Below, piece after piece: positions 12,010-53,434 of a DNA stretch of 64,000 bases. The notes below the pieces were generated by a model. It was not told the DNA's origin. It searched no databases and saw nothing but the letters and a program-made list of their open reading frames with translations. The stretch lies in IMG/VR virus record IMGVR_UViG_3300033067_002106, positions 1-64,000 of that record; one strand, given 5' to 3'. The stretch comes from a virus. Taxonomy: Duplodnaviria > Caudoviricetes. Numbering within the stretch: position 1 is the stretch's first letter; the number at the start of each line of letters is the position of its first letter. Made by a program: the position numbers and the translations under genes.

Positions 12010-12010
12010 T

Positions 12011-34936: not shown

Positions 34937-34983
34937 CGTTACTTTTTTGTACCTAGCACATATTTATATAGAAATGTATAGAT

Positions 34984-35598
34984 ATGCCTAGAAAACAAAA
35001 AACAATTCACTACCTTTATAAAACCACATGCTTGGTCACTGGTAGATATTATATCGGAATGCATAGTACATCTAACCTTGAAGATGGTTATTTAGGGAGT
35101 GGAAAAGTAATAAGACGTTCAATTCGGAAATATGGACCGGAAAACCATAAAAAAGAGATATTAGAGTTCTTTGAGAGTAGAGAGTTATTAATTGAGGCTG
35201 AGAAGATGGTAATAACACCGGAGATGGTAGTTGATAAAATGTGTATGAATTTGATACATGGAGGTATTGGTTGGATGTTATCCCATAACAAAGCCTTTAG
35301 CGAAAAACTTAAATTGGATGAAGAATTCAGATTAGATTTTTCAAATAAAATATCAAATGCTCGGAAACGAGAATTAAAATTTAATCTTCGCCCAAACTTT
35401 AATTGTGATTGGACGGGTAAGAAACATTTAGAATCAACAATTATAAAGATGCGTGAAAAAAAACTTGGTACTGGAGTAAAAGAAGCAAATTCAAAATATG
35501 GAACTTGTTGGATTACGAATGGTGTTGAAAATAAAAAAATCAACTTAGTCGACCTTGATAACTATTCTAATTCAGAATGGTTTAGAGGTAGAACATAA
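34984..35598 (+). CDS. GIY-YIG (Seg-like) homing endonuclease with NUMOD-like tail
   Basis: YLYKTT...YYIGMH...YLGSG; GKKHLEST. Confidence 0.8.
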   Translation: MPRKQKTIHYLYKTTCLVTGRYYIGMHSTSNLEDGYLGSGKVIRRSIRKYGPENHKKEILEFFESRELLIEAEKMVITPEMVVDKMCMNLIHGGIGWMLSHNKAFSEKLKLDEEFRLDFSNKISNARKRELKFNLRPNFNCDWTGKKHLESTIIKMREKKLGTGVKEANSKYGTCWITNGVENKKINLVDLDNYSNSEWFRGRT

Positions 35599-35733
35599 AC
35601 TCTCTTATCAAGATTCCAACCATTAACCACCTTAGGATTGGAACTAACGGCCCTCAGCAAATCGCTTTGTTGGGGGCTTAACTTTTTAAAAAAAAACGGA
35701 GCCGTGGCCCCGTTGATAATTTGTATAACTAAT

Positions 35734-35856
35734 TTACTTACTTGGTCTTACTGTTGGTATAGTAACAGTTGTTTGAGTTGTTTGAGTAGTGTTAGTATTG
35801 GTAGTGGTAGTAGCGGGTGTTGCCGCTGTTGTACCCTTTTTGCATCCGCACCCCAT
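35734..35856 (-). CDS. 40-aa MGCGCK-start Thr-rich peptide (not in ORF track)
   Basis: MGCGCKKGTTAATPATTTTNTNTTQTTQTTVTIPTVRPSK*, followed on the minus strand by a hairpin + T run (about 35685-35715). Confidence 0.6.
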   Translation of the reverse strand: MGCGCKKGTTAATPATTTTNTNTTQTTQTTVTIPTVRPSK

Positions 35857-35953
35857 AGGTTAAATTTTAATTTGATGTTATTATACTAATAAATATATCT
35901 GGAATCTTTATCTTTATCATAATTTTGATATATTGTAAGAAATTTACAATAAG

Positions 35954-36178
35954 ATGTTCAAAAGAAAATATTCAATAACAATTCTTGATGATAAATGGGA
36001 AAAATTAGTTCTTAATTATAATTTCACCCATATACCAAGACGTGATGAGTTGATATTTTTGGATTCAATCGGGAAATATTATAAGGTTTTAAACGTTATT
36101 CATTATCTCACCAAAAAACAAGGTATTTTCATCATTGTCAAGGAGTTCGAACATGAATTTCATCTAAACCCAAAATAA
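35954..36178 (+). CDS. Hypothetical protein
   Basis: 74-aa ORF. Confidence 0.6.
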   Translation: MFKRKYSITILDDKWEKLVLNYNFTHIPRRDELIFLDSIGKYYKVLNVIHYLTKKQGIFIIVKEFEHEFHLNPK

Positions 36179-36225
36179 TTTTGAAAAAAAAATCAAAAAA
36201 ACTTGACACGAGCCAATTCTTTTCG

Positions 36226-36233
36226 TATCTTTG
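36226..36233 (+). promoter_or_regulatory. Bacteroidota-type -7 promoter element TAnnTTTG (representative)
   Basis: Same motif upstream of genes at 13155, 28286, 31482, 34534, 37547, 38480, 41612, 46323, 47085, 56165, 59751, 62239. Confidence 0.75.
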
Positions 36234-36274
36234 CATATATTTACTAAAAAGCTCTTAATTTACTGATACCCAAA

Positions 36275-36441
36275 AAAGTGGTTACGGCAACGTAAACAAA
36301 AACAATAAATGCTAAAGTAGGTATACCATCCTACTTGCTAGCCTTTTGCTAGTAAACAAAAAATGGTACTGTTATGGTGGCAGTATAAAATCAGCCCTTG
36401 TATCTGTTAGTCAAGTAAAATAAAGGCAAACCATCACTTTG
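36275..36441 (+). ncRNA. Candidate structured RNA (closing stem + TACGGCAA)
   Basis: AAAGT-GGTT pairs with AACC-(ATC)-ACTTT; several internal hairpins. Confidence 0.4.
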
Positions 36442-36456
36442 GGGTAACTTTTTAAA

Positions 36457-36516
36457 GGAATCATTACAGCAAATAAAATATTCTTGACTCAAAATTAAGA
36501 CCAAAAAATGATTCCG
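36457..36516 (+). ncRNA. Candidate small RNA with anticodon-arm mimic
   Basis: GGAATCAT/ATGATTCC stem, TACAGCAA, inner TCTTGA-CTCAAAA-TTAAGA hairpin. Confidence 0.5.
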
Positions 36517-36521
36517 TATTT

Positions 36522-36587
36522 GCGTCCTTGGTGTAAGATAACACGGCTCCGCTGAGGAGTTAATCCAGTATCGAGTCTGGGGACGCA
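36522..36587 (+). tRNA. Short atypical tRNA-like gene (possibly CTG anticodon)
   Basis: GCGTCCT/GGGACGC acceptor and GTGT/ACAC D stem, but non-canonical anticodon and T loops. Confidence 0.35.
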
Positions 36588-36594
36588 CAAATAT

Positions 36595-36666
36595 TGCGAG
36601 GTAGAGCAGTAGTAGCTCGTGTGGCTCATAACCATAAGGTCGGGGGTGCAAATCCCTCCCTCGCAA
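36595..36666 (+). tRNA. tRNA-Met(CAT)
   Basis: Full cloverleaf; loop CTCATAA; T loop TGCAAAT; paired 1:72. Confidence 0.8.
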
Positions 36667-36721
36667 CATCATCAAAATAACGTCAGCGGAATTGGACTGC
36701 TGTTTATTATTGATAAAAAAT

Positions 36722-36805
36722 CGTGGGATGGTGTAACGGCAACATGCTAGGCTCATAACCTAGAGACATCAAATGCAAGTGTAGGTTCGAGTCCTACTCC
36801 CGCAA
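36722..36805 (+). tRNA. Initiator-like tRNA(CAT) with long variable region
   Basis: C1xA72 mismatch, CTAGG-CTCATAA-CCTAG arm, 17-nt variable region. Confidence 0.7.
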
Positions 36806-36851
36806 CAAAGCAAAGGCCCTTAGGGGCCGTTTGCATTTAAAAAAGAAATAT

Positions 36852-37532
36852 ATGAAAAAGAACATTACCCTAGAAATCAGAGATGCTGAAGGTGGCTCTG
36901 ATGCAAAACTTCTGGTCTGTGATATGAGAGACATCTATATCAGAGCAGCAAAGAATAACGACTTCAACTGAAGGGTTCTCGAAGAACGAGATGGGTTTGT
37001 CAATATCTGACTCTCAGGCCCAAATGTCGAAAAATTTTATCAAAACGAAATAGGTTCTCACAGGTGGCAAAGAGTTCCACCAACCGAAAAACGTGGTAGG
37101 GTTCATACCAGTACCATTACCGTTGCATTGCTTGAACTTACCAATTATCAAAATATTGAGGTACCACAAAATGAACTTAAGGTTGAAACAACCAGAGGTA
37201 CAGGTAATGGTGGACAACATAAAAATTCTACTGATTCGTGTGTTGTAATGACCCATATACCAACAGGTATAAAGGTTGTGAGAGATGGTAGAAGTCAACT
37301 TACAAATAGGGAAGATGCATATAAAGAGATAAATCGTAGAGTAAATGAATATTATCGTACTGGTCAAATGTGTGAAGAATCTGAAATTCGAAAAGAACAA
37401 ATCGGTGACGGTGCTAGAAGTGATAAACGAAGAACCTATCGTGTTAGGGATGGAATAGTCGTAGACCACATTACAAATAAAATTGCAACAATAAAAGAAA
37501 TTTTAAAGGGTAAGATTAATTTATTGTCATAA
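36852..37532 (+). CDS. RF1-like peptide chain release factor (lacks domain 1) with two in-frame TGA codons
   Basis: Continuous frame MKKNITLEIRDAEGG...FN*RV...NI*LSG...QRVPPTEKRGRVHTST...GGQH; TGA at 36969-36971 and 37008-37010. Confidence 0.85.
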
Positions 37533-37567
37533 TCAAAAATTTTTCGTATCTTTGTTTAAAATATTTT

Positions 37568-38074
37568 ATGCAAAATGAGATTCGTCTTCTTATAATCGGA
37601 CCAGCCAGACATGGTAAAGACACATTGGCGGAAACAATGCGTGATAATTTTGGACTTAACTTTAAATCATCATCACAAGCTTGTTCAGATATCTTTATTT
37701 TTAATGAATTAAAAGATAAGTATGGTTATACAACACCAGAAGAATGTTTTGAAGATAGATTGAATCATAGAGCTGAGTGGTATCAATTGATTTGTGGTTA
37801 TAACGTAGATGATAAAGCCAGATTAGCCAAAGAAATATTGAAAGATAACAACACATATGTTGGTATGAGAGATAAGGATGAAATCAAAGAATGTATGAAT
37901 CAGAAATTATTTGATTTGATTATCTGGGTAGATGCCGAAGGAAGACTTCCAAACGAATCCTCGGAGTCATTTAATATCACCAAGGACCTTGCCGATATTA
38001 TTATTGAAAATAATGGTACACCAGAAGAGTTTAATAAAAAAATTATCAGATTGGGTAAATTTTTAAAAAAATAA
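37568..38074 (+). CDS. P-loop nucleotide monophosphate kinase-like protein
   Basis: IIGPARHGKDT Walker A. Confidence 0.7.
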   Translation: MQNEIRLLIIGPARHGKDTLAETMRDNFGLNFKSSSQACSDIFIFNELKDKYGYTTPEECFEDRLNHRAEWYQLICGYNVDDKARLAKEILKDNNTYVGMRDKDEIKECMNQKLFDLIIWVDAEGRLPNESSESFNITKDLADIIIENNGTPEEFNKKIIRLGKFLKK

Positions 38075-38109
38075 TTGACTTTTTTAGAAAATCTTAGTAT
38101 ATTTGTTCC

Positions 38110-38454
38110 ATGGAAAAATCGGTAATTGAAATATTAAAAAGAACCAATATCGTTGAAAATGACGAAATTGAAATTCAAAATCTGAAGAACATTGTGGTCA
38201 ATTGGCCAACCGTTGAAATAAGGGACTCATTTGATGATGAAGAAATTGAAGAAGAGGAAGTTGACCTTGAAAACTGGGAAATTATATCGATTTCGGATGA
38301 AAAACTAACAATGTGTGCTGGGGGTGATTGGCAGGAACCAACAATCTTTAGCTTGGTTCCTTATGACGAAAACTATTTGATGGCCACTAATATTCGTGAT
38401 GGATATGAGGATGGAATGCATTATGATGACGTTTTGAAAATTTTAACAAATTAA
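38110..38454 (+). CDS. Hypothetical acidic protein
   Basis: 114-aa ORF with AGGDWQEP. Confidence 0.6.
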   Translation: MEKSVIEILKRTNIVENDEIEIQNLKNIVVNWPTVEIRDSFDDEEIEEEEVDLENWEIISISDEKLTMCAGGDWQEPTIFSLVPYDENYLMATNIRDGYEDGMHYDDVLKILTN

Positions 38455-38497
38455 ATTTGGTTGTTCCAAAAATTCGCCATATCTTTGTTCTCTAATT

Positions 38498-38568
38498 GGC
38501 TCGGTGGTGTAACGACAACATTTAGGACTCTAAATCCGAAAGATAAGGGTTTGAATCCCTTTCGAGTC
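38498..38568 (+). tRNA. Amber suppressor tRNA(CTA), Gln-like body
   Basis: Cloverleaf; loop CT-CTA-AA (anticodon 38530-38532); own TATCTTTG promoter at 38480; one mismatch in anticodon stem. Confidence 0.75.
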
Positions 38569-38582
38569 TCAAAACCTTGAAA

Positions 38583-38774
38583 ATGAATATAAAAGAAGCG
38601 AAAAGTAAACTTTGGGAAGAATTAAAGGTGAGTGATTTTGTTGTTGGAATATCCTGCGATGAGACAAAAATCGTGGTACATCTTTTAAACGGCAAATCAA
38701 AAAAATTGATACCCAAAGATTATGAGGGGCATAAGGTTACGACTAAAGTAACAGGTAGGATAACGCTTCAATAA
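38583..38774 (+). CDS. Hypothetical protein
   Basis: Short ORF. Confidence 0.55.
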   Translation: MNIKEAKSKLWEELKVSDFVVGISCDETKIVVHLLNGKSKKLIPKDYEGHKVTTKVTGRITLQ

Positions 38775-38824
38775 ATTGATTTTTTTTAAACTTGTAATAT
38801 ATTTATTATTATAAAACAACACAG

Positions 38825-38911
38825 ATGACACACTAGATTTCTAACAACGAAAAGTTACGTATTGTAACAAGAAGGGATATCCCCCTACAGTATGCGGCAG
38901 TACAAGCTGGC
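38825..38911 (+). pseudogene. 5' fragment of a PTH2 gene (MTH*ISNNEKLRIVTRRDIPLQYAAVQAG)
   Basis: Clearly homologous to the start of the intact copy at 39630, including TAG at codon 4. Confidence 0.8.
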
Positions 38912-38941
38912 CTTTTCGATTTCTCTCCATATTTATATTAT

Positions 38942-39625
38942 ATGAAAAGACCAAATGTTAGAAAAACAACCGAGAAGTTTATTCAAGAATGTCAAAAAAT
39001 TCACAAAAAATACGACTATTCATTAGTTGAGTACGTTACAAATAAAACTCCTGTCAAAATTATTTGTAACATACATGGTGTATTTAGCCAAATTCCATCC
39101 CATCATTTAAAAGGTTCTGGGTGTCCAAAGTGTGCCAATGACGTTAAATCAATAGAGTTCTTCATTGAGAAATCAAAATTGATTCATGGTAATTATTACG
39201 ATTATTCAAAAGTAGAATTTAAAAACACGAATAATAAAGTAATTATTGTCTGCCCCAAACACGGTGATTTTAGTCAACAACCAAAACATCATTATAATGG
39301 TGCTGGGTGCCCATATTGTAAGCAATCTAAAGGTGAAAGGGACATAATAAAATATCTTAAGGAAAACAATATAAAATTTATTTCACAAAAGAGATTTAAT
39401 GATTGTAGAGATAAAAAACCATTACCGTTTGATTTTTATCTACCAGAATTAAATATTTGTATTGAATTTGATGGTGAACAACATTTTAAAAGTAAATCAG
39501 TTTTTGGTGGTGACAAAGAATTTGAGAATAGGGTCAGACGTGATGTAATAAAAACCAATTATTGTGATAAAACTGGAATTAAATTAATAAGAATTAAAAA
39601 TAACGAAACAATTAATCTAAAATAA
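38942..39625 (+). CDS. Putative homing endonuclease (DUF723-like Zn repeats + Vsr/DUF559-like nuclease)
   Basis: Two YDYS...IICxxHG...HxxGxGCPxC repeats; FDFYLP...IEFDGEQH. Confidence 0.8.
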   Translation: MKRPNVRKTTEKFIQECQKIHKKYDYSLVEYVTNKTPVKIICNIHGVFSQIPSHHLKGSGCPKCANDVKSIEFFIEKSKLIHGNYYDYSKVEFKNTNNKVIIVCPKHGDFSQQPKHHYNGAGCPYCKQSKGERDIIKYLKENNIKFISQKRFNDCRDKKPLPFDFYLPELNICIEFDGEQHFKSKSVFGGDKEFENRVRRDVIKTNYCDKTGIKLIRIKNNETINLK

Positions 39626-39629
39626 AACT

Positions 39630-39986
39630 ATGACACATTAGGTATCAACAACAGAAAAACTAAGGGTGGTTACCAGACGTGACCTATCATTTGGTGCGCA
39701 ATCAATTCAATGCGGTCATGCCGCCATCGATTTTCAACACCAGCATCCAGAATTAGCCAAACTTTGGCACTCCCATTCAAATTATTTAGCGTATTTAACC
39801 GTCAAGGACGAACAAGAGCTTATTGACTTAATCGTCAAAGCAACCTTGCGTGGTATCAAATACACAATCTTCAGGGAGCCTGATATCAATAATCAAATTA
39901 CAGCGGTGGCCTTTGAGCCAACAAGTGCTAGTCGTAAGTTAACTAGTTCATTACCACTTCTGGGAAAGGAGGTAAGCTATGCTTAA
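39630..39986 (+). CDS. pth2: Peptidyl-tRNA hydrolase 2 family protein with in-frame TAG at codon 4
   Basis: ATG ACA CAT TAG GTA...KLRVVTRRDL...IQCGHAA...FREPDINNQITAVA. Confidence 0.8.
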
Positions 39987-40239
39987 CATCAACGAAAGAA
40001 CTGAGATAATCTTCCATTTCAATAAGAAGTATTTGGAAGATAATACCATCCCCATGTGGATTATCAAAGCCAAGGGTGAGACATACTATGTTCACCACGT
40101 GGATATGGAAAGCGGTGTTGGATTTTCAACCAAAGAAACACCAGATAATCCCCATACCAAGGGTTCAATCAAATTTAAGGGTAAATTAAGTATTCATCCA
40201 AATGAACATGGAGAATTGATAGCAACAATTTCACCTTAA
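39979..40239 (+). CDS. Hypothetical protein
   Basis: 86-aa ORF overlapping PTH2 end. Confidence 0.65.
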   Translation: MLNINERTEIIFHFNKKYLEDNTIPMWIIKAKGETYYVHHVDMESGVGFSTKETPDNPHTKGSIKFKGKLSIHPNEHGELIATISP

Positions 40240-40245
40240 TGAGAA

Positions 40246-40316
40246 GGTCAAGTGGCCGAGTGATAAGGCATGGTTCCGCAAGGACCAGTACGGTGGTTTG
40301 AATCCATCCTTGACCT
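40246..40316 (+). tRNA. tRNA-Cys(GCA), atypical C33
   Basis: GGTCAAG/CTTGACC acceptor, U73, loop CCGCAAG. Confidence 0.6.
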
Positions 40317-40321
40317 CACTA

Positions 40322-40348
40322 GATGCATTAGCTCAGCGGCAGAGCAAT
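40322..40348 (+). pseudogene. 5' half of an interrupted tRNA gene
   Basis: GATGCAT-TA-GCTC-AGCGGCA-GAGC-A then abrupt loss of tRNA structure. Confidence 0.65.
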
Positions 40349-40385
40349 AATTTGACGTTTTATCATTTTCATGATATTTATTAAT

Positions 40386-40970
40386 ATGGAAAAAGAATTA
40401 TTAAAAAAATATATTGATGAGGGTCTCTCAATAAGAAAAATTGCTGAAAAATTAAGTTGTTCAGCAACAACAATTAGGTATTATTTAAACAAATTTGATT
40501 TGGTAAGCAAATGGCATCAGCCAAATAAATTTAATGTTGAAGTAATTAGAAAATTATGTGAAGAAAAAATTAGTATTTCTGAAATTTTACGTGAATTAAA
40601 TTTACATGTTAGCAACACTAATTTTTTATCTATAAAGAGATTTGCAAAAAAAAATAATATTATATTGCCTAAAAATGGAAATAAAAGCGGAAATAAACGA
40701 TTTCCAAAAAGAACGAATAGTGAAATTTTTTGTGTAAATAGTCCCGTTAGTAGGGGGGTGGTAAGAAAACGATTATTAGAAGAAGGTCGAGGTGAAAAAT
40801 GTGAATTATGTACACAAGGTATTGAATGGAACGGAAGAAAAATATCTATGATATTAGACCATATTAATGGGGTTCCAGACGATAATAGACGTGAAAATTT
40901 AAGATTTATATGCCCAAATTGCGACTCAACATTAGACACATTTTGTGGGCGAAATAAAAGATATAAATAA
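40386..40970 (+). CDS. HNH homing endonuclease with N-terminal HTH
   Basis: CELC...LDHING...NRRENLRFICPNCDS. Confidence 0.85.
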   Translation: MEKELLKKYIDEGLSIRKIAEKLSCSATTIRYYLNKFDLVSKWHQPNKFNVEVIRKLCEEKISISEILRELNLHVSNTNFLSIKRFAKKNNIILPKNGNKSGNKRFPKRTNSEIFCVNSPVSRGVVRKRLLEEGRGEKCELCTQGIEWNGRKISMILDHINGVPDDNRRENLRFICPNCDSTLDTFCGRNKRYK

Positions 40971-40971
40971 T

Positions 40972-41042
40972 GTGGGTGTAGCTTAAAGGTAAAGCGATGG
41001 TCTCTAAAACCATTGTTGACAGTTCGATTCTGTTCATCCATA
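40972..41042 (+). tRNA. Amber suppressor tRNA(CTA), Trp-like body
   Basis: ATGGT-CTCTAAA-ACCAT anticodon arm, canonical D and T arms. Confidence 0.8.
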
Positions 41043-41050
41043 CAGATACT

Positions 41051-45132: not shown

Positions 45133-46296
45133 ATGAAAACGTTTATTAAAGAACAACTAAGAAGATTTATTTTAATGGAACAAAGGATTAAATATGATAT
45201 GCATATTCCTGATGATATCTTAGCAATCAAAGACGTTTTTAAAAAGAACGGCTATAAGCTATATGTTGTTGGTGGAGCGGTTCGTGATGCTATCCTAGGC
45301 AAAACACCAAAAGACTTTGACCTAGCAACCGATGCTGTTCCAGACAAGGTTGAAGAAATAATGAAAAATGCTGGATTGAAAACCCTTCCAACCGGAAAAG
45401 CTTTTGGTGTAATAAATGTTTTTACAAATAAAGGTGAATATGAGATAGCTACCTTCCGTGAGGATAGCTCTACTGGTGATGGCCGTAGACCAGACTCAGT
45501 TAGCTTTACAAACATCGAGGGTGACGTTAAACGACGAGATTTGACCATCAACGCCCTTTTCTATGATATAGATACACATGAGGTGGTTGACTTGGTTGGG
45601 GGCGTAAATGACCTTAAAAACGGTGTGGTGAGAACCGTGGGAAGTCCAGAAGAAAGGTTCAACGAAGATAAGCTTAGGATTCTTAGGGCCATCAGATTTG
45701 CTGGTCGGTTTGGTTCTGGTTTGGACCCTGCTGTGGATGCCGCATTAATGAAAGATGCTAGCCTTCAAGGAATATCTGGTGAAAGAATCAGAGATGAATT
45801 CCTTAAGGGTATCAAATCATCCAAATCAGTTGTTCAATTTTTAAGACTTATCGATAAATACAACCTGTTTGACTGGATATTTAGGGGGTTAAAGGTTAAT
45901 AAAGAATTTGTGGAAGACAAGGACCCAATCCTTGTAATAGCTAACCTATTGAAATTCAATGAATCTTCAGTACTCAACAAACAATTAAATGTTTATAAGT
46001 ATACCATTGAAGAAATACGAGCTATTACATTCTTAATCAATCTTTTAAAATTGAGTCCAGAAACAGCTGTTGCACTGAAGAGAGCCCAAAAGATTTCTGG
46101 TGTATCAGATGAACAAATTAGAAAGTTTGGCCATCAGGAAGGGTTGAATTCTAAGCTTTTAGAAGCTTTTTTGAAGTTTAGATTAACTGTAAATGGTGAA
46201 CAACTCATGCAACAGCTTAATATGAAGCCGGGAAAGGAACTTGGTGATGCAATAAATAAGGCTGAATACGATAATTTTAAAAAATTGTTGGGGTAA
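45133..46296 (+). CDS. cca: CCA tRNA nucleotidyltransferase (class II)
   Basis: YVVGGAVRD, DFD, RRDLTINAL, EDKLRILRAIRF. Confidence 0.9.
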   Translation: MKTFIKEQLRRFILMEQRIKYDMHIPDDILAIKDVFKKNGYKLYVVGGAVRDAILGKTPKDFDLATDAVPDKVEEIMKNAGLKTLPTGKAFGVINVFTNKGEYEIATFREDSSTGDGRRPDSVSFTNIEGDVKRRDLTINALFYDIDTHEVVDLVGGVNDLKNGVVRTVGSPEERFNEDKLRILRAIRFAGRFGSGLDPAVDAALMKDASLQGISGERIRDEFLKGIKSSKSVVQFLRLIDKYNLFDWIFRGLKVNKEFVEDKDPILVIANLLKFNESSVLNKQLNVYKYTIEEIRAITFLINLLKLSPETAVALKRAQKISGVSDEQIRKFGHQEGLNSKLLEAFLKFRLTVNGEQLMQQLNMKPGKELGDAINKAEYDNFKKLLG

Positions 46297-46370: not shown

Positions 46371-46613
46371 ATGTCTAAAACACAAACACAAAAAACCAGA
46401 ACGCAAGTTTCCGTTGAAAACGGTATCAAAGTTTTAAAACTTGCAATCAGAGGAAAACTTTCCTTGTCTGAAGCCTCAAGAAGAAATTCTTTTGGAAGAA
46501 ACTACGTTTCTGATGTAAAAGCAAGAATTGCTGATAACTACAGAAACAAGAATGTTGATAAAGAAACTTATCAAACATTCAAAACACTTTTGAAAACCTA
46601 CGCAACTCTTTAA
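46371..46613 (+). CDS. Small basic, possible HTH protein
   Basis: LSLSEASRR pattern; TATCTTTG promoter upstream. Confidence 0.55.
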   Translation: MSKTQTQKTRTQVSVENGIKVLKLAIRGKLSLSEASRRNSFGRNYVSDVKARIADNYRNKNVDKETYQTFKTLLKTYATL

Positions 46614-46687
46614 GGTTACAAAGGACATCAATTCAAAGAAATAATTATGGCGCTATTCAAAGTAGCGCCATATTTATTTAAAAAAAT

Positions 46688-47032
46688 ATGGCAAGGTATA
46701 TAGCAATCTTCACGGATAATCATAATGAAGAATTTGATGTTAACGGATTCAAAACAATGACAGAACGTGAAGTTGAGAATTTTGAGAATTTAGCAATGAG
46801 TATTACATGGGAATTTAGTTATCGTGCAAATGACGAAGCCCTAACCTATGTGAGTGGTGAGGATTTACTATCAAGAATAGAATTCAAAGAGATATCCAAG
46901 GCTGAATATGACTCGTTGGAGAAAGTGTTTGGTGGTGAATTTGGCACCTTTATCAGTGAAGAATATCTTGAAACAATCATTGATGATGAGGAAGGCCCAG
47001 ATACTGAAGATTGGGATGAAGAGGACCAATAA
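46688..47032 (+). CDS. Hypothetical acidic protein
   Basis: 114-aa ORF after TATTTAT. Confidence 0.6.
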   Translation: MARYIAIFTDNHNEEFDVNGFKTMTEREVENFENLAMSITWEFSYRANDEALTYVSGEDLLSRIEFKEISKAEYDSLEKVFGGEFGTFISEEYLETIIDDEEGPDTEDWDEEDQ

Positions 47033-47265
47033 AAAAATATTTAAAAAAAAGTCAGAAAAAACTTGTTTATTTGGAAAAGTTTTGTATATTTGCATTCTAA
47101 TTGATAACAATCCACGCAGTAACTGAGACCAATGGATTGGGTGTTAAGCCTGAATAAGAAGCTGGTAAAACCGATAAATTTGTTTCTCAGCAAGTGCTTC
47201 TAAAAGAAACTGACACAAATATCAATTAGATTTTTGATTTTTTTGCTTTTTTTAATTTTGTAACA

Positions 47266-47272
47266 TATTTAT
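47266..47272 (+). promoter_or_regulatory. TATTTAT putative late promoter motif (representative)
   Basis: Recurs shortly upstream of starts at 3125, 6099, 18307, 21901, 23706, 34961, 38800, 38930, 40375, 45108, 50192, 53028. Confidence 0.65.
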
Positions 47273-47303
47273 TACTTAACGGGTAACCCATAAACATAAA
47301 ACA

Positions 47304-47402
47304 ATGAGAACTATTAACATACATATGAATTCGATTAATTGGAGACGCAATAGTCATTCAAATCGACAGGTCATGCTTAATAGTGACGATACTTGGGGAT
47401 AA
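47304..47402 (+). CDS. Leader peptide, 32 aa: MRTINIHMNSINWRRNSHSNRQVMLNSDDTWG
   Basis: ATG 47304, TAA 47400-47402, 20 nt before a strong terminator. Confidence 0.75.
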   Translation: MRTINIHMNSINWRRNSHSNRQVMLNSDDTWG

Positions 47403-47422
47403 CCCAGCAATCAAAATACTTT

Positions 47423-47457
47423 AAAGCCTCTGACCCAGAAATCAGAGGCTTTTTTTT
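47423..47457 (+). terminator. Attenuator-type terminator upstream of tRNA array
   Basis: AAAGCCTCTGA/TCAGAGGCTTT 11-bp stem plus 8-T run. Confidence 0.85.
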
Positions 47458-47460
47458 ATT

Positions 47461-47631
47461 ATGTTAGATGAAAGATACAAGAAACTAGGTAGTGAAACAC
47501 AAAAAAATCTAAATACTGATTTTGACAGAATATATGAGAAGTACAAAGAGAAAGCATTGGAGCTGGGGTTTATGGGTGAATTGAAGTTTGTGAAGGAACG
47601 TGGAAGAGTGTTGATTTATGTAGTTATTTGA
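47461..47631 (+). CDS. 56-aa hypothetical protein (not in ORF track)
   Basis: MLDERYKKLG...GRVLIYVVI*, first gene after the attenuator. Confidence 0.6.
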   Translation: MLDERYKKLGSETQKNLNTDFDRIYEKYKEKALELGFMGELKFVKERGRVLIYVVI

Positions 47632-47647
47632 AATAGATTTTATATAC

Positions 47648-47718
47648 ACAGGTATGGTGCAATGGTAGCATACGAGTCTCCAAAACTTTTGATGTGGGTT
47701 CGAATCCTACTACCTGTG
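47648..47718 (+). tRNA. tRNA-Trp(CCA)
   Basis: Canonical cloverleaf, loop CTCCAAA, G73. Confidence 0.85.
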
Positions 47719-47815
47719 CATTGTGCATCGCCTAGCCTCTTATTGGCTCTCTAAACCAATTACGAAGCGATTCCCTAACGCAAGGGAGATACGTTAATAA
47801 TAAGAATGTATCACA

Positions 47816-47899
47816 CACCTCGGCTCATTGGCGTGACCAGTCGGTTCCAACCCGATAATGCGTAAGCGTGGTTAAGAGTTCGAATCTCTTCCTTGGTGC
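47816..47899 (+). tRNA. Atypical tRNA(CCA) with long variable arm
   Basis: GTCGG-TTCCAAC-CCGAT arm, AAGAG/CTCTT T arm, mismatched acceptor. Confidence 0.45.
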
Positions 47900-47903
47900 A
47901 AAT

Positions 47904-48073
47904 TGATGAGTGTTGAAAATTAAGGGCCAGAAGGCCCAACGGCAGACATGCCCCTTTGTCTCAGGGGTGGTGATAACGAGATAGATAAACAGTAACGGGT
48001 TGACCACAAGCTTGCAAGCACACATGCTGTTTACCGAATCGCACCGTGGATGGTTCGAATCCTCCCTCATCAG
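47904..48073 (+). tRNA. Expanded 170-nt tRNA-Asp(GTC)-like gene
   Basis: TGATGAG/CTCATCA-G73, CCCCT-TTGTCTC-AGGGG arm, TTCGAAT T loop; hairpin insertions in D and variable regions. Confidence 0.6.
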
Positions 48074-48215
48074 CAAAGTTTGAATGACGTAAACGTGGGA
48101 AAATTTCATTAACTGGGTTCGAATCCTAGGTCTGGGTCTAACCCAGACATTGATAACATATCAAACGATATTTAGTTTACTTGGACAACGTTCTATAAAA
48201 ATCGGAGTCCGTTAT

Positions 48216-48304
48216 GGAGAGGTCGCATAATGGTAGTGCAGCAGTCTTGAAAACTGCCGTGTCGATGATGAGTCGGCTTTAGGGTTCGAGTCCCTATCTC
48301 TCCG
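48216..48304 (+). tRNA. tRNA-Ser(TGA)
   Basis: Type II cloverleaf, loop CTTGAAA, G73. Confidence 0.9.
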
Positions 48305-48350
48305 CAAAGTAATCGAAAGAACAGTACTTAACGATTAGATTACTAGACAG

Positions 48351-48437
48351 ACCCTATTGGTCGAGAGGCTTAAGACATCTTGCGAGAAGCAGGAGGCCCC
48401 GTGAAATGGTCCGTGGGTTCGAATCCCACATAGGGTT
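48351..48437 (+). tRNA. Ser-like type II tRNA with atypical anticodon loop
   Basis: Good acceptor, T and variable arms; loop CGAGAAG lacks U33, so the anticodon is ambiguous. Confidence 0.5.
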
Positions 48438-48446
48438 TGTCAACTT

Positions 48447-48532
48447 GGAGAGTTAAGGAAGGGAAGGTCCCTCGCTTGCTTGGAAAGCAAGAACCCATTA
48501 AGTTGGGCGGTTTTCGAATAGCCAGCTCTCCT
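48447..48532 (+). tRNA. tRNA-Ser(GGA)
   Basis: CTTGC-TTGGAAA-GCAAG, long variable arm, weak T stem. Confidence 0.7.
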
Positions 48533-48544
48533 CCTTGACTTTAC

Positions 48545-48619
48545 GGTGGCGTTAGCTCAGTTGGTTAGAGCATCAGATTGTGATTCTGAGGGTCGTGGGT
48601 TCGAACCCCATACGCCACC
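48545..48619 (+). tRNA. tRNA-His(GTG)
   Basis: Canonical, G-1:C73. Confidence 0.9.
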
Positions 48620-48628
48620 CCCTGATAT

Positions 48629-48704
48629 TGTTAAGTGGTGTAATTGTAGATAGCATGACTCTAGCGCAGGGGTAGGAAGTTGGTGCAACTCCAATACTTA
48701 ACAG
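48629..48704 (+). tRNA. Degenerate tRNA-like gene, anticodon unclear
   Basis: TGTTAAG/CTTAACA acceptor, D arm and TGCAACT T loop; irregular anticodon arm. Confidence 0.35.
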
Positions 48705-48710
48705 CAACAT

Positions 48711-48801
48711 GGTGTGTGTGGTCCGAGTGGTCGAAGGAATCTGCCTGTGAAGCAGAATGAGATTATATCAAACGTCGTGGGTTCAAATCCCATCATGCAC
48801 C
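48711..48801 (+). tRNA. Type II (long variable arm) tRNA-His(GTG)
   Basis: TCTGC-CTGTGAA-GCAGA, G-1:C73, Tyr/Ser-like D arm, 20-nt variable region. Confidence 0.7.
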
Positions 48802-48846
48802 CTTTAAGATGGTTGTGAGTATACTGTAATCAGAAACTCTCAAATC

Positions 48847-48924
48847 GGTGTCGTAACCCCCCTGTCTGATACACAGGACAAAGGTAATTGGTGGGAGATA
48901 TGGGTTCGAGCCCCATCGACACCA
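48847..48924 (+). tRNA. Rearranged (D-arm-displaced) tRNA-Ile(GAT)-like gene
   Basis: Perfect acceptor, anticodon and T arms; only 7 nt between acceptor and anticodon stem; GTAATTGG follows the anticodon arm. Confidence 0.7.
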
Positions 48925-48931
48925 CAGACAA

Positions 48932-49014
48932 CCTGACGAGGCAGACTGGTTGATGCACCACCCTGATAAGGTGGGTTCGCAAGAACAAGGTGGGTTCGAT
49001 TCTCACCGTCAGGA
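48932..49014 (+). tRNA. Type II tRNA-Ile(GAT)
   Basis: CCACC-CTGATAA-GGTGG, variable hairpin GTTC-GCAA-GAAC. Confidence 0.7.
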
Positions 49015-49016
49015 CA

Positions 49017-49214
49017 ATGAAAATTGAAAAAGCAATTGAGGTATTACATGATGTTGGTGTTGCTAAAAGTACAACATTAGAGATTATGTATGAATTATTA
49101 GAAAATGCAAATAAATATGCCAATAATTCAGAAGCAATCGAAAAGCTTTTAAAAGAAAAGCTTTCAATTGAAGAATTCATCTCGGTTAAAAATCAATTTA
49201 TTTTGGACGCTTAG
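49017..49214 (+). CDS. Hypothetical protein within tRNA array
   Basis: MKIEKAIEV... 65 aa. Confidence 0.55.
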   Translation: MKIEKAIEVLHDVGVAKSTTLEIMYELLENANKYANNSEAIEKLLKEKLSIEEFISVKNQFILDA

Positions 49215-49278
49215 CTCAGTTGGTTAGAGCAGCTGACTCATAATCAGCGGGTCACTGGTTCGAACCCAGTAGTGTCCA
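49205..49278 (+). tRNA. tRNA(CAT), probably Ile2 (lysidine type)
   Basis: Canonical; GCTGA-CTCATAA-TCAGC; sits among Ile tRNAs. Confidence 0.8.
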
Positions 49279-49481
49279 CGGGGATGGGGAGGTTAAATCT
49301 CGCTCGGACAAAACTGAGTAACCCTTAATCGGGGTTCGATTTTATCAAAGACCATCAAAGAGACCTGAAAAAAGAGTAACTAACACAACGGGATGTTGTT
49401 GTAGAAGAAAATTTTCTAACATTGGAGATGAAAACTGGATAAATAGAATAAGCGGGTGAAATTCCCGTCGTCGCCAAACCT

Positions 49482-49572
49482 TGGGTAGTAGCAGCGGTGC
49501 CTTATACGCATCACACTTGTAACTGGCATCTTGAGATAACTTCAAATGTGGGTTCGAACCCCATCTACCCAA
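49482..49572 (+). tRNA. Rearranged tRNA-Ile(TAT)-like gene
   Basis: TGGGTAG/CTACCCA, GGTGC-CTTATAC-GCATC, GTAACTGG after the anticodon arm. Confidence 0.7.
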
Positions 49573-49638
49573 CAATTGGAATCATATTCTTGTTGCCCCG
49601 TTTGGGATATGATATTGAAATTGAGTTACGGGGCCCTT

Positions 49639-49723
49639 GGATGGGTTGCTTTAGAGGCCGAAAAGTCTAGATTGTTAATCTAGTGTCGCAAGACCACCGT
49701 GGGTTCGACTCCCACCCCATCCT
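49639..49723 (+). tRNA. Type II tRNA-Asn(GTT)
   Basis: CTAGA-TTGTTAA-TCTAG, variable hairpin GTC-GCAA-GAC. Confidence 0.75.
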
Positions 49724-49730
49724 CAAATAT

Positions 49731-49804
49731 TCTGATGTAGCTCAGTTGGTTAGAGCATCTGACTGTTAATCAGAGGGTCGTAGGTTCGAGTCCCACCATC
49801 AGAG
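49731..49804 (+). tRNA. tRNA-Asn(GTT)
   Basis: Canonical, G73. Confidence 0.9.
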
Positions 49805-49818
49805 CAAATAAATGTGTT

Positions 49819-50055
49819 ATGGAACTTAAAAGCATTTCAAAAGAGGTTATCGATGAGTACAAAGAATTTATTCTTGAGCGATTAACTATCCGTCCAACTG
49901 ATACTCCAACAGCTATTGCTAGCAGAGCATGGTATCGTGGGTTTAAGGATTTCAGGTTTGATGATGCTAGGGCTTTGGCTGAGAAGGTTAAACAGATTTA
50001 TTTGACACATATCAACAAGAAAACTATTTCTGAAGTTAGAGATATGATTTTTTAA
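49819..50055 (+). CDS. Hypothetical protein within tRNA array
   Basis: 78-aa ORF. Confidence 0.55.
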   Translation: MELKSISKEVIDEYKEFILERLTIRPTDTPTAIASRAWYRGFKDFRFDDARALAEKVKQIYLTHINKKTISEVRDMIF

Positions 50056-50056
50056 C

Positions 50057-50131
50057 GGACAATTAGCTATTAATTGGTAGAGCGAGTGGTTGTTAGCCAC
50101 AGGGTTGTGGGTTCGAATCCTACATTGTCCG
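50057..50131 (+). tRNA. tRNA-Asn(GTT), divergent copy
   Basis: GTGG-TTGTTAG-CCAC arm, G73. Confidence 0.75.
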
Positions 50132-50222
50132 CTTTTTTAGTTCTTTGAAATTATTTTTGTTTTAAAGTTTAAACTTTGGGTATAGTTTCGGTATTTATTA
50201 AATGATAACTTTCGTTTAATAA

Positions 50223-51296
50223 ATGCAACAAACAATGCCACACAACACCAAGGTACTTTTTATCCTAAAAAGAAGACAAGATTATAATGGAGACAAACAT
50301 TCACATGCTAATTTAAGCACTGGGTTATATAATTCAGCGGCTTTTATGAATGATATGTTAAATGAACAAGGTATTCGTTCTAAGATTGCTGTTGTTAGAG
50401 ATAACAATGATATCGATAGACAAGTCACCAAGTTCAAACCAAAATATGTTATTATTGAAGCACTTTGGGTTGTTCCAAGTAAATTCAGTGTTTTATGTAA
50501 GCTACACCCTAATGTAAAATGGATTATTCGTTTACATAGTGAAATTCCATTCTTAGCAAATGAGGGAATAGCAATGGATTGGTTGGGTGATTATCCAGCT
50601 TTTCATAATCTTATTATAGCAGCAAACGCTCCGAGAGCATTAAAAGACCTTAGATTTTATTTAAAGACAAAGTATCATTGGAACGATGAAAAACTTGAGA
50701 AGAAAGTCATCTATCTTCCAAATTATTATCCAGATACTTACAAACGTAAGGAATTTGATGATACCAAATGTCACATTGACATTGGTTGTTTTGGTGCAAT
50801 CAGACCAATGAAAAATCATTTAACTCAAGCAATTGCGGCAATAAAGTTTGCTGAATCTATTGGTAAAAAATTAAGATTTCATATCAATGCTGGAAGGATT
50901 GAACAAAAGGGTGATAGTGTATTGAATAATCTTAAAGCTTTATTTACACAATTAAAGTCTTCTGGTCATCAGTTGATTGACCATGGTTGGATGCCTAGGG
51001 AAGAATTCTTAAAGGTGTGTGGAAAAATGGATATTGGAATGCAAGTTTCAATGTCAGAAACCTTTAATATTGTTGGTGCTGATTTGATGGGCCAAGGTGT
51101 TCCTCTTGTCGGTTCAAATGAAATTCCTTGGATGTGTAAGTTTTTTACTGCTAAACCAACAGATACTGAAAGCATTTATAGAAAACTAAGATTAACTCAT
51201 TGTTTTTCTAAAGTGAATGTTTTCTTAAATCAATTATTCCTGAGAAAATATACAAATAAAACAAGGAAGATATGGGTTAAATACTTCGAAGATTAA
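50223..51296 (+). CDS. Glycosyltransferase (GT-B/GT4-like)
   Basis: IGCFGAIRPMKNH, QVSMSETFNIVGAD. Confidence 0.75.
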   Translation: MQQTMPHNTKVLFILKRRQDYNGDKHSHANLSTGLYNSAAFMNDMLNEQGIRSKIAVVRDNNDIDRQVTKFKPKYVIIEALWVVPSKFSVLCKLHPNVKWIIRLHSEIPFLANEGIAMDWLGDYPAFHNLIIAANAPRALKDLRFYLKTKYHWNDEKLEKKVIYLPNYYPDTYKRKEFDDTKCHIDIGCFGAIRPMKNHLTQAIAAIKFAESIGKKLRFHINAGRIEQKGDSVLNNLKALFTQLKSSGHQLIDHGWMPREEFLKVCGKMDIGMQVSMSETFNIVGADLMGQGVPLVGSNEIPWMCKFFTAKPTDTESIYRKLRLTHCFSKVNVFLNQLFLRKYTNKTRKIWVKYFED

Positions 51297-51313
51297 ATTA
51301 AAACAAAGGTAAC

Positions 51314-51592
51314 ATGAAAAAAAGAAACAAATTAACTATTAATATTACACAATGGAAAAATGGTGTGCTAGACGTATCTGATATTGAATGTGATTCACTA
51401 GATGAAGCAAAAGGATTTATCAGGGGTCTTAAGGGTAAAATGAAGGTTAAGGTTTATGATGGAAATAAAAGAGTTCAACATTCAGAGGACATAGATAATG
51501 AAGATAAACATGAACACCACGAACACCACGAACATCATGGACATCATGAACACCATGGTCATCATGAGCATGATAACGATTCATATTGTTAA
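51314..51592 (+). CDS. Small protein with His-rich C-terminal tail
   Basis: HEHHEHHEHHGHHEHHGHHEHD. Confidence 0.65.
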   Translation: MKKRNKLTINITQWKNGVLDVSDIECDSLDEAKGFIRGLKGKMKVKVYDGNKRVQHSEDIDNEDKHEHHEHHEHHGHHEHHGHHEHDNDSYC

Positions 51593-51704
51593 TATTAGCT
51601 TTCTATTTTTCATTTAAATGCCGATGTATCCAAGTGGCCAAAGCTATATTTGGATAAAATTGGAGTGTATTTCCCTGTGACAATTAGCACAAACTAAAAT
51701 ACAT

Positions 51705-51774
51705 TGCATGAGTTATTGGAATACAGCCATCTCTCATAAGGAAGGCCAAGGCGGTTCGACTCCGCTTCATGCAA
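51705..51774 (+). tRNA. Atypical tRNA(CAT) with reduced D arm
   Basis: TGCATGA/TCATGCA acceptor, GGCGG/CCGCT T arm, CTCATAA loop. Confidence 0.5.
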
Positions 51775-51780
51775 CAACAA

Positions 51781-51859
51781 GCCGATGTAACCAGTTCTGT
51801 CTTCGAAACAGTTATCTGTAATGGAGTTGCAAATGTGGGTTCGAATCCCTCCATCGGTT
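51781..51859 (+). tRNA. Rearranged tRNA-Arg(TCG)-like gene
   Basis: GCCGATG/CATCGGT, CTGT-CTTCGAA-ACAG, GTAATGG after the anticodon arm. Confidence 0.65.
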
Positions 51860-51912
51860 CAACAACACTTATAGAGCCTCTCAATGATGCGCAACTTCTA
51901 TAGGTTTTATTT

Positions 51913-51988
51913 GGCTTTATAGTTTAACTGGATAAAACACCTGATTGCGAATCAGGAGACGTGATGGGTTCGAATCCCTCTAAGGTCA
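51913..51988 (+). tRNA. tRNA-Arg(GCG)
   Basis: CCTGA-TTGCGAA-TCAGG. Confidence 0.8.
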
Positions 51989-52043
51989 CAAATTGTATTA
52001 TGATTGTATTTTTAAAATATGAATGTGTTTATGTTGACCGACT

Positions 52044-52274
52044 ATGTGGGTCAACATCATACAACTTCGTGTAAACGAAAAGCAATCAAAAAAAATTGAT
52101 AGAAGCAAGGTTGAGAAACATAGAAAACACCTTGAAATGGGCGGTGACATGTTTCCAATCGACGTTGTAAAAATCAATGAAGAAGAACACTGTATTTGCG
52201 GCAATGGCAGACACCGTTACTATGGTGCGTTGGAAGCCGGTGTTCAATTTATTGATGTCAATGTACTGAATTAA
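52044..52274 (+). CDS. Small ParB/sulfiredoxin-like domain protein
   Basis: PIDV...GNGRHRY.GA. Confidence 0.6.
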   Translation: MWVNIIQLRVNEKQSKKIDRSKVEKHRKHLEMGGDMFPIDVVKINEEEHCICGNGRHRYYGALEAGVQFIDVNVLN

Positions 52275-52275
52275 T

Positions 52276-52353
52276 GGTCTCGTAGTGTAACAGGATAACA
52301 TAGACGTTTCCTAAACGGCCAGAGTAAGGGTTCGAATCCCTTCGAGACTACCA
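52276..52353 (+). tRNA. tRNA-Arg(CCT)
   Basis: Loop TTCCTAA, encoded CCA. Confidence 0.8.
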
Positions 52354-52358
52354 AATAT

Positions 52359-52447
52359 GCCCCAGTAACCGAGTCGGCCTTCTAAGCTGTTAATCGTAAT
52401 TGGAGTTGAGATTGTATCAAACGCAGGTTCGAATCCTGTCTGGGGTT
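52359..52447 (+). tRNA. Rearranged tRNA-Arg(TCT)-like gene
   Basis: GCCCCAG/CTGGGGT, CGGC-CTTCTAA-GCTG, GTAATTGG after the anticodon arm. Confidence 0.65.
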
Positions 52448-52453
52448 CAAGAT

Positions 52454-52529
52454 GGTTCCATAAGCTAACTGGATAAACTGGCCGCCTTCTAAGCGGCACT
52501 TATGGGTTCGAATCCCGTTGGAACTACCA
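52454..52529 (+). tRNA. tRNA-Arg(TCT)
   Basis: Canonical, encoded CCA. Confidence 0.9.
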
Positions 52530-52597
52530 AATATTTCGTATGAATGTACCATACAGTATGGCATCCAGTACTAGGCAAAAACCCCTAGTCGGTAGCC

Positions 52598-52885
52598 ATG
52601 AACAAGAAAAGAAGACAAGAGCTTAAACAGCTTAAATTTATTAATCGTATTAAACGATTTATTGCAAATGGTAAATATTATTTTACCAAGGATAGAGAAC
52701 GGATTGATTCGCCAACCGTTCAAGATATAATCAACGATGGTGGGTTTTTATGTTATAAAACAACATCAACACCATGTTCCTGTTATACGTGCTCTGGGGA
52801 ATATAAATACCGTAGACATGAGCATAAAATAATAGAAAGAAAGTTGGTTCAAGAAGGATTGGAAGATTATTACAACCTAGATTAG
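52598..52885 (+). CDS. Hypothetical basic protein
   Basis: TPCSCYTC motif. Confidence 0.6.
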   Translation: MNKKRRQELKQLKFINRIKRFIANGKYYFTKDRERIDSPTVQDIINDGGFLCYKTTSTPCSCYTCSGEYKYRRHEHKIIERKLVQEGLEDYYNLD

Positions 52886-52897
52886 TCTAGGTATTTT

Positions 52898-52986
52898 GGA
52901 GGATAGGCAGATACGGTTTGCTGCGTTAGTTTGCTAAACTAATCTACCCCACAAGGGTAGTGAGGGTTCGAATCCCTTGTCCTCCG
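52898..52986 (+). tRNA. tRNA-Ser(GCT)
   Basis: Type II cloverleaf, G73; terminator follows (about 52990-53016). Confidence 0.9.
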
Positions 52987-53044
52987 CTAAAGGCCACACA
53001 TGTGTGGTCTTTTTTTGTTTTATACCATATTTATTACTAAAAGT

Positions 53045-53434
53045 ATGGCATTCATTCCCAATCACTTACATTTGATAGTTAAGGGTAAAATCAACAACCC
53101 ACCTAAAGAAGAAATCGACTTAAATAATTGGTTTATAGAGCTGGTAAAGGGTGTCCGAATGGTAGTAGTGGCGGGTCCGACATCAGTTTACGTAAAAGAT
53201 GAAGGGAATGAGGGGTTAACCGGAACGGTGACACTTGCCACATCTCATGCTTCAATTCATATTTGGGACAATACAATCCCATCTCTTTTTCAATTTGATA
53301 TTTATTCGTGTTCATGTTTTACCGTTGAGGAGGTATTACAACATTTAAACAAATTTGACCTAAGTGAATATGAGTACATATTTATTGATAGAAATAATGA
53401 AATAAAGATTATAGATACTGGGAAAAATCAGTGA
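53045..53434 (+). CDS. speD: S-adenosylmethionine decarboxylase proenzyme-like
   Basis: HLHLIV, GLTGTVTLATSHASIHIW, FDIYSC. Confidence 0.8.
   Translation: MAFIPNHLHLIVKGKINNPPKEEIDLNNWFIELVKGVRMVVVAGPTSVYVKDEGNEGLTGTVTLATSHASIHIWDNTIPSLFQFDIYSCSCFTVEEVLQHLNKFDLSEYEYIFIDRNNEIKIIDTGKNQ

Follow-up and report, generated by a model that had tools for sequence, protein, structure and literature searches.

In enterobacteria, leader-peptide attenuators include trpL, hisL, leuL and pheL as well as the multivalent elements of ilvGMEDA (Ile/Leu/Val) and thr (Thr/Ile), and in Escherichia coli the pheST genes, coding for phenylalanyl-tRNA synthetase, are likewise under leader-peptide attenuation. To our knowledge, all the leader-peptide attenuators described so far regulate genes for amino-acid biosynthesis or for aminoacyl-tRNA synthetases. 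The transfer RNA (tRNA) genes of phages are usually treated as constitutive cargo, which either fixes a codon-usage mismatch or replaces tRNAs destroyed by defences, and we know of essentially nothing on how their expression is controlled. Here we analyse a phage locus, named leader 1, which departs from the above class of attenuators in that the downstream genes are an open reading frame (ORF) of 56 amino acids (aa) and about 15 tRNA genes. The locus belongs to the IMG/VR virus record IMGVR_UViG_3300033067_002106 (Duplodnaviria; Caudoviricetes); the window, that is, the whole stretch of DNA analysed, comprises the first 64 kb (positions 1 to 64,000) of this 82.8-kb phage contig (G+C 34%). Judging from the sequence, leader 1 is very probably a ribosome-mediated (leader-peptide) transcription attenuator gating a phage tRNA operon. 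This interpretation had been put forward in an earlier note, made by a model from the letters of this DNA, and it is supported by our data, all the computational tests named in that note having come out in its favour. The anatomy of the element, its conservation, the covariation of its antiterminator and the correspondence between sensor codons and tRNAs are directly observed. The features of the unit are as follows.

47304..47402, + strand: leader ORF, 32 codons plus TAA, ATG start, open frame in 48/48 homologues
47313..47357, + strand: sensor codons 4-18, consisting only of Ile, Asn, His, Met, Ser, Trp and Arg codons
47368..47379, + strand: segment 2, the 5' strand of the antiterminator (codons 22-25)
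47424-47435, + strand: segment 3, the 5' arm and loop of the terminator, partner of segment 2
47423..47460, + strand: intrinsic terminator, stem-loop 47423-47452 followed by the T-run 47453-47460
47461..47631, + strand: conserved 56-aa ORF, the first gene past the terminator
47648..52987, + strand: putatively controlled tRNA array, about 15 tRNA genes (ARAGORN, Rfam)
52989..53020, + strand: strong intrinsic terminator ending the unit, directly after tRNA-Ser-GCT

The 32-codon ORF indicated by the earlier note is present, running from ATG to TAA, and its composition is extreme. Specifically, 26 of its 32 residues fall in the set of amino acids that the note had assigned to the array, which is the top value of all 32-codon windows in the six frames of the 82.8-kb contig, the runner-up having 24; the small ORFs of the contig show a mean fraction of 0.40 in the same set (standard deviation, SD, 0.095). 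The array itself contains tRNAs for Trp, Ser, His, Ile, Asn and Arg, together with a CAT tRNA, as the note had listed; its claim of an Asp tRNA did not hold, as none was detected in 47648-52987 by ARAGORN and Rfam, and the Asp-GTC tRNA of the contig maps at 82665, behind a different leader. The seven sensor amino acids account for 0.297 of the proteome (long ORFs of the contig), while all 15 codons of the sensor can be decoded by tRNAs of the array, both in the window and in complete relatives. These codons sample the Trp, His, Asn and Met isoacceptors and two isoacceptor types each of Ile, Ser and Arg, with Arg-CCT as the exception, a tRNA of the array for which the leader has no codon. The sensor prefers rare codons (TCG, CGC/CGT) and has one codon per isoacceptor family; TCG and CGC, which account for 5% of Ser and 2% of Arg codons, respectively, are kept. 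This usage fits a device testing each tRNA species. The earlier statement that every listed codon has a matching anticodon in the array was true of all the sensor codons and failed for CGA (codon 21), which has no strict cognate because the anticodon GCG does not read CGA, and for the GAY codons; both fall outside the conserved sensor. The absence of Lys, Glu, Phe and Tyr from leader and array, pointed out in the same note, is accounted for by related phages, which keep those tRNAs in other arrays with leaders of their own.

Orthologous leaders, which the earlier note had proposed to look for, were found in 48 distinct jumbo-phage loci. A search for relatives with the 56-aa protein gave none, and its homologues were reached through the neighbouring CCA-adding enzyme (45133-46296), by which 23 related IMG/VR loci were gathered; for 15 of these, no other non-coding-looking stretch is as well conserved as the leader region, which holds an ORF of 31-33 codons. 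A DNA pattern derived from the conserved leader core then yielded 60 loci, corresponding to the 48 distinct leaders. These are 29-33 codons long and differ in length by whole codons; 99% of their sensor residues belong to the seven amino acids that the array serves. Conservation of the peptide spans residues 1-19, beyond which it is free to vary.

At the nucleotide level, 47304-47360 is 85-90% conserved where the CCA-adding enzyme protein is 58-70% identical. Such conservation, added to the terminator/antiterminator logic that riboswitches share, would also be expected of a ribosome-independent RNA switch, in which the leader triplets bind tRNA anticodons or a protein, acting like the specifiers of a T-box-like array, with an incidental ORF. 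We consider this explanation very improbable: the two other frames are open in none of the 48 homologues, insertions and deletions come in threes, the sensor region shows no conserved structure, and Rfam scans of the window at the gathering threshold and of 46600-53100 at E<=1 returned tRNA, transfer-messenger RNA (tmRNA) and chance-level matches, with no T-box or other leader family at either threshold. In addition, the codon at one Ser position is AGY in some leaders and TCG in others; the two codon families are unrelated, so that the identity of the amino acid or of the tRNA is kept and not the sequence; this argues for selection on decoding rather than on RNA sequence.

The terminator of the window matches its earlier description, as the stem-loop has 11 pairs followed by T8, and it starts 20 nucleotides (nt) after the leader stop. 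It does not stand directly before the tRNA array, as had been stated, since the 56-aa ORF intervenes. The fold z-score of 47290-47470 is -5.1. Terminators across the loci were located by a fold-based finder, and in the leader-1 homologues a G+C-rich hairpin with a T-run lies 20-35 nt past the leader stop, with a hairpin sequence that is lineage-specific. The terminator is thus kept in structure and not in sequence, with compensatory changes in 7/7 consensus pairs (RNAalifold, 45 leaders).

The pairing proposed between 47369-47378 and 47424-47435 proved to be the best duplex (-10.8 kcal/mol), and it is kept by covariation in the relatives. Codons 20-25 (58-75 nt from the ATG) are complementary to the 5' arm and loop of the terminator of their own locus, examples being GAGTCGG with CCGACTC, GAATCGG with CCGATTC, and GGTCAAGG with CCTTGACC. 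Over 27 terminator types, the mean antiterminator energy is -14.4 kcal/mol for cognate partners vs -9.9 kcal/mol (SD 0.53) for permuted ones (p<5e-5). On the MAFFT alignment A1, 82.5% of the cells of the antiterminator helix are paired, and double-change cells number 31 vs 10.6 in shuffles, a value reached by 0/500 shuffles; when the partner columns were slid as controls, pairing fell to 16-58%.

Nascent RNA was then folded under the constraint of a 28-nt ribosome footprint. When the ribosome was placed with its A site in codons 4-16, 98-100% of the leaders folded into the antiterminator; the share fell to 0-12% for A sites in codons 20-28. The earlier note held that only stalling in codons about 1-18 would release the antiterminator; in the footprint folds this release is confined to A sites between codon 4 and codon ~18. 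The boundary of this switch coincides with the end of peptide conservation. In one locus (L016) we observed two tandem copies of leader 1 with its small protein (11942-12272 and 13502-13831), having different terminators, each with its own matching antiterminator.

The conservation of 19 N-terminal residues would also be found in a functional peptide, and leader 1 could then be a stand-alone micropeptide gene with its own terminator, the tRNAs being transcribed independently and the composition match being due to coincidence or shared ancestry. This is the least probable of the explanations that we weighed, as the C-terminus varies freely, residues 20-25 are dictated by the pairing with the terminator, and the next ORF or tRNA begins 4-25 nt past the T-run, which leaves no room for a promoter. 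Moreover, such a gene would have to be reconciled with four to seven unrelated peptide families, described below, each matching its own array.

The contig contains two further leaders, downstream of the window.

76946-77026: leader 2, core of Leu/Val/Cys, from a scan for terminators preceded by small ORFs
82518-82607: leader 3, rich in Phe/Asp/Ala/Glu, from a shared-promoter scan

Leader 2 precedes two Cys, two Val and five Leu tRNAs, and its Leu codons TTG, CTT, TTA and CTA match 4/5 of the Leu anticodons downstream. Leader 3 is followed by tRNA-Asp and then by the end of the contig. Both leaders have perfect 7-8 bp antiterminators in the same position as in leader 1. For array comparison we fetched five large relatives (230-370 kb), in which leader 3 precedes Phe, Glu, Asp and Ala tRNAs, matching the prediction from its codons, and a fourth leader (Thr/Tyr/Gln/Lys/Pro/Gly) precedes exactly the tRNAs for those amino acids. 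The four units of the relatives split all 20 amino acids as 7+3+4+6, and at least three units are present in this contig. As for leader 1, its array in 14 relatives always comprises Trp, Ser, His, Ile, CAT, Asn and Arg tRNAs, in varying order.

All fetched loci were also screened by a generic, family-blind finder, requiring a small ORF, a terminator, an antiterminator and a tRNA within 700 nt. This gave 76 candidates, of which all but one have the peptide character of the four families. One candidate, in locus L007, is false and sits inside a tRNA. One leader of the Leu/Val/Cys type (G003b) had been missed by the motif classifier. The DNA pattern of the Leu/Val/Cys leader was too loose (at least 116 matches, mostly unrelated), and its matches were filtered by the generic leader finder.

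LR745206.1 and LR756502.1 are far more distant phages, 634-642 kb in size, with a CCA-adding enzyme just 38% identical; their predicted hosts are Bacteroidetes (PMC7162821). In these genomes the tRNAs are divided differently, among six to seven units, and each leader matches its own array. The units are the following.

Distant-phage unit: His/Phe/Lys(/Trp)
Distant-phage unit: Ser/Arg(/Met)
Distant-phage unit: Glu/Tyr
Distant-phage unit: Ile/Gly/Ala
Distant-phage unit: Asn/Leu/Val/Ile/Thr/Arg(/Met)
Distant-phage unit: Pro/Asp/Gln
Distant-phage unit in one genome (LR756502.1), position 69515 of joined L249+L251: leader of 17 codons, seven of them Gln codons in a row, upstream of four Gln tRNAs

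In LR745206.1, Met occurs both in the Ser/Arg array and in its leader, and in LR756502.1 it occurs in neither. The poly-Gln leader of LR756502.1 looks like a single-amino-acid version of the same device, similar to the his leader.

The expectation that leader composition tracks array content therefore holds in four families among the close relatives and in six to seven in the distant phages. When arrays were permuted among leaders within genomes, 324 of 479 sensor residues matched their own array over all genomes vs 120 expected (p<=2e-5), and in the distant genomes the true assignment of leaders to arrays alone scored that high among 5040 permutations.

These data also bear on a third explanation, by which the attenuator is real and reports general translation capacity or the timing of infection, any slowing of ribosomes leading to read-through. 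The leader families do share a promoter type and a start (Met, then Arg/Lys, then Thr/Asn); furthermore, in folds made with no ribosome the antiterminator is the default in 83% of leaders, and a loss of translation would open all the units. A sensor of that kind gives no reason, however, for 15/15 array-matched codons, for leaders that differ between the units of one genome and change with the partition of the arrays, or for the conservation of rare codons for particular isoacceptors. We judge it unlikely, though somewhat less so than the RNA switch and the micropeptide gene.

Returning to the attenuator that senses matched codons, we infer translation of the leader, ribosome stalling, the direction of regulation and a feedback from the arrangement of the sequence. 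Transcription would begin upstream of 47304 and the 32-codon leader would be translated. If any matched codon were decoded slowly, the ribosome would be held upstream of codon ~18, leaving segment 2 (47369-47378) free to pair with 47424-47435 once this is made; the terminator would be blocked, and RNA polymerase would go on to transcribe the 56-aa ORF and the tRNA genes until it reached the terminator at 52989. With fast decoding, the ribosome would cover codons 19-29, the terminator would form and the transcript would end at 47453-47460. The tRNAs made would restore fast decoding of the leader, which amounts to a negative feedback matching tRNA supply to demand. The specific trigger named in the earlier note, depletion of tRNAs by host anticodon nucleases, is not among the points that our data support; the quantity sensed can be stated only as slow decoding of the matched codons, and Asp is not sensed by the leader-1 unit. 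Candidates for the natural cause of slow decoding are a mismatch with host codon usage, tRNA decay after shut-off, anticodon nucleases and uncharged tRNA.

The start of transcription was considered in the light of the following features upstream of the leader.

47063..47092, + strand: Bacteroidota-type promoter-like site (TTG, 19 nt, TAnnTTTG box)
47096..47264, + strand: 169-nt insertion, missing in the closest relatives (L010, L001); L010 is contiguous across the site
47264..47271, + strand: conserved -7-like box (T/C)ATATTTA, from the alignment of relatives
47281..47289, + strand: hairpin of the 5' untranslated region (UTR), GGG-loop-CCC, then an A-rich stretch to the ATG; in many relatives, and also before leader 3

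The TATTTAT motif that the earlier note had taken as a promoter at 47266 lies inside the conserved -7-like box. The site at 47063-47092 is the only paired -33/-7 match within 46600-53100, and its sequence recurs on this contig upstream of leaders 2 and 3, and in L010 and L001 upstream of leader 1. The arrangement TTTG-N21-TATATTTA, which precedes leaders 2 and 3 as well as leader 1 in relatives, resembles the Bacteroidota -33/-7 promoter. The insertion has terminal inverted 10-mers and a fold of -32.5 kcal/mol, and a search of the contig and of all fetched loci gave no second copy of it. Transcription may start from the intact upstream site, with read-through of the insertion, or from a weaker site recreated by the insertion.

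Several observations weigh against the attenuator as proposed. The 169-nt insertion splits the ancestral promoter/5' UTR, parting its upstream half from the -7-like box. Isolated -7-like boxes at 50152 and 51645 could drive attenuator-independent transcription of the distal array; in favour of the attenuator, no paired -33/-7 promoter match was found inside the array. With -10.8 kcal/mol, the antiterminator of the window is at the weak end of its family. Furthermore, no conserved 1:2 (anti-antiterminator) helix was found, RNAalifold on 45 leaders giving the terminator only; the window's own 5' leader can pair with segment 2, and this pairing is not conserved. Without such a helix, untranslated RNA would read through by default, as seen in the folds mentioned above, and the element would be a switch with two states, thrown to termination by efficient translation. 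In the footprint folds a ribosome sitting on the stop codon leaves segment 2 uncovered, so that for termination one has to assume either steric blocking or a lag of a particular size between the ribosome and the polymerase. Contigs from four wastewater RNA libraries cover the stretch with no difference between coding and non-coding parts and run across the terminator; being contigs, they cannot reveal transcription or RNA ends.

The genes placed beyond the terminator are the 56-aa ORF and the tRNAs. In about 40 of the 48 loci a member of the family of the 56-aa ORF (55-65 aa) is encoded first past the leader-1 terminator; the family is missing from a few, where tRNA-Trp directly follows the terminator, and is replaced or interrupted in two. 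It has no match in Pfam or PHROG. The tRNA genes of the array are listed below.

47648, + strand: Trp-CCA
47817-47899, + strand: atypical Trp-like tRNA
48216, + strand: Ser-TGA
48545 and 48712, + strand: His-GTG
48932, + strand: Ile-GAT
49205, + strand: CAT tRNA
49639, 49731 and 50057, + strand: Asn-GTT
51913, + strand: Arg-GCG
52276, + strand: Arg-CCT
52454, + strand: Arg-TCT
52898-52987, + strand: Ser-GCT
48350, 48629, 51781 and 52359: weaker tRNA calls

Small ORFs and one 357-aa ORF are scattered among these tRNAs, and the terminators at 47423 and 52989 bracket the unit. The Trp(CCA)-like element at 47817-47899, 83 nt long and with a reduced D arm, needed a relaxed ARAGORN threshold to be called. 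An element with 94% identity to it lies in LR756502.1, in the His/Phe/Lys array, and the leader of that array includes a Trp codon. Among the His, Ile and Asn tRNAs, several exceed the usual length, at 84-91 nt, and T-arm-like motifs with no called tRNA occur at about 48052, 48117, 48903 and 49333. A blastn search of 46600-49400 against a phage collection gave tRNA-sized matches only.

The unit is part of a translation island, extending from 34.5 kb on, which contains a tmRNA, two CTA suppressor tRNAs, the CCA-adding enzyme next to leader 1 and more than 30 tRNA genes. In a separate cluster at 34583-41043, the tmRNA is found together with two Met-CAT, two CTA (amber-reading) tRNAs and one Cys tRNA, and the generic finder detected no leader-terminator cassette there. 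A 204-aa ORF (34984-35598) follows the tmRNA, and the same N-terminus appears again at the contig end (G000 82803-82835, L083) after tRNA-Asp, which could reflect a gene that is repeated or mobile within the tRNA island. Metagenomes that contain the stretch 46900-48300 come from nine studies of sludge, wastewater and rivers (some may be the source sample), which places the phage in wastewater-type habitats.

If leader 1 and its companions act as proposed, attenuation by leader peptide would be extended from amino-acid metabolism to tRNA supply, with a natural example of many isoacceptors sampled in one short ORF. The question of when and why large phages need their own tRNAs would become testable, each unit being a compact, movable promoter-leader-terminator cassette. 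The leaders may also serve as an annotation tool, as their codon content predicts the downstream tRNA genes; this was borne out for leader 3 and for the atypical Trp-like tRNA missed by default tRNA finders. More speculatively, the set of leaders (three here, four in the relatives, up to seven in the 640-kb phages) might perform a codon-by-codon audit of decoding capacity, by which the phage would detect the loss of any host tRNA species, whether to the anticodon nucleases of defence systems or to decay after host shut-off, and would transcribe only the matching backup array. We put this forward tentatively, as a possibility that is rather less likely than its opposite; if true, it would be an inducible counter-defence and a supply-control circuit for the genetic code itself.

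The novelty of the element would lie in leader-peptide attenuation with tRNA genes as the regulated target. A search of the full-text literature gave no description of leader peptides or attenuators before phage tRNA genes, and the paper releasing genomes of the LR745206.1 type makes no mention of leaders, attenuation or terminators (Al-Shayeb et al. 2020, PMC7162821).

Compared with the enterobacterial amino-acid attenuators, the phage element has the same parts, namely a short leader rich in the relevant codons, here presumably translated, an intrinsic terminator and an antiterminator that would be freed by stalling; as in ilvGMEDA and thr, several amino acids are represented in one leader. 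It differs from the attenuators of amino-acid operons in that it would control tRNA genes and not biosynthetic enzymes, and in that its leader samples seven amino acids and about ten isoacceptors, mostly with one to four codons each instead of runs. It is, moreover, phage-borne, in a host that is probably a member of the Bacteroidota, and its sets partition all 20 amino acids; unlike the trp type, it has no conserved 1:2 helix. With pheST it shares the attenuation by leader peptide of a component of the translation apparatus; there, however, one amino acid is sensed and the product is a protein, whereas the products of the phage unit are the very tRNAs that read the leader, hence a direct feedback would result. 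T-box riboswitches have a similar goal, sensing the state of a specific tRNA and flipping a terminator/antiterminator for translation-related genes, but they bind uncharged tRNA without a ribosome, one tRNA per element, whereas the phage element has a conserved ORF and no T-box match. Finally, the arrays, accompanied by a tmRNA, a CCA-adding enzyme and suppressor tRNAs, resemble the tRNA clusters of T4, T5 and huge phages.

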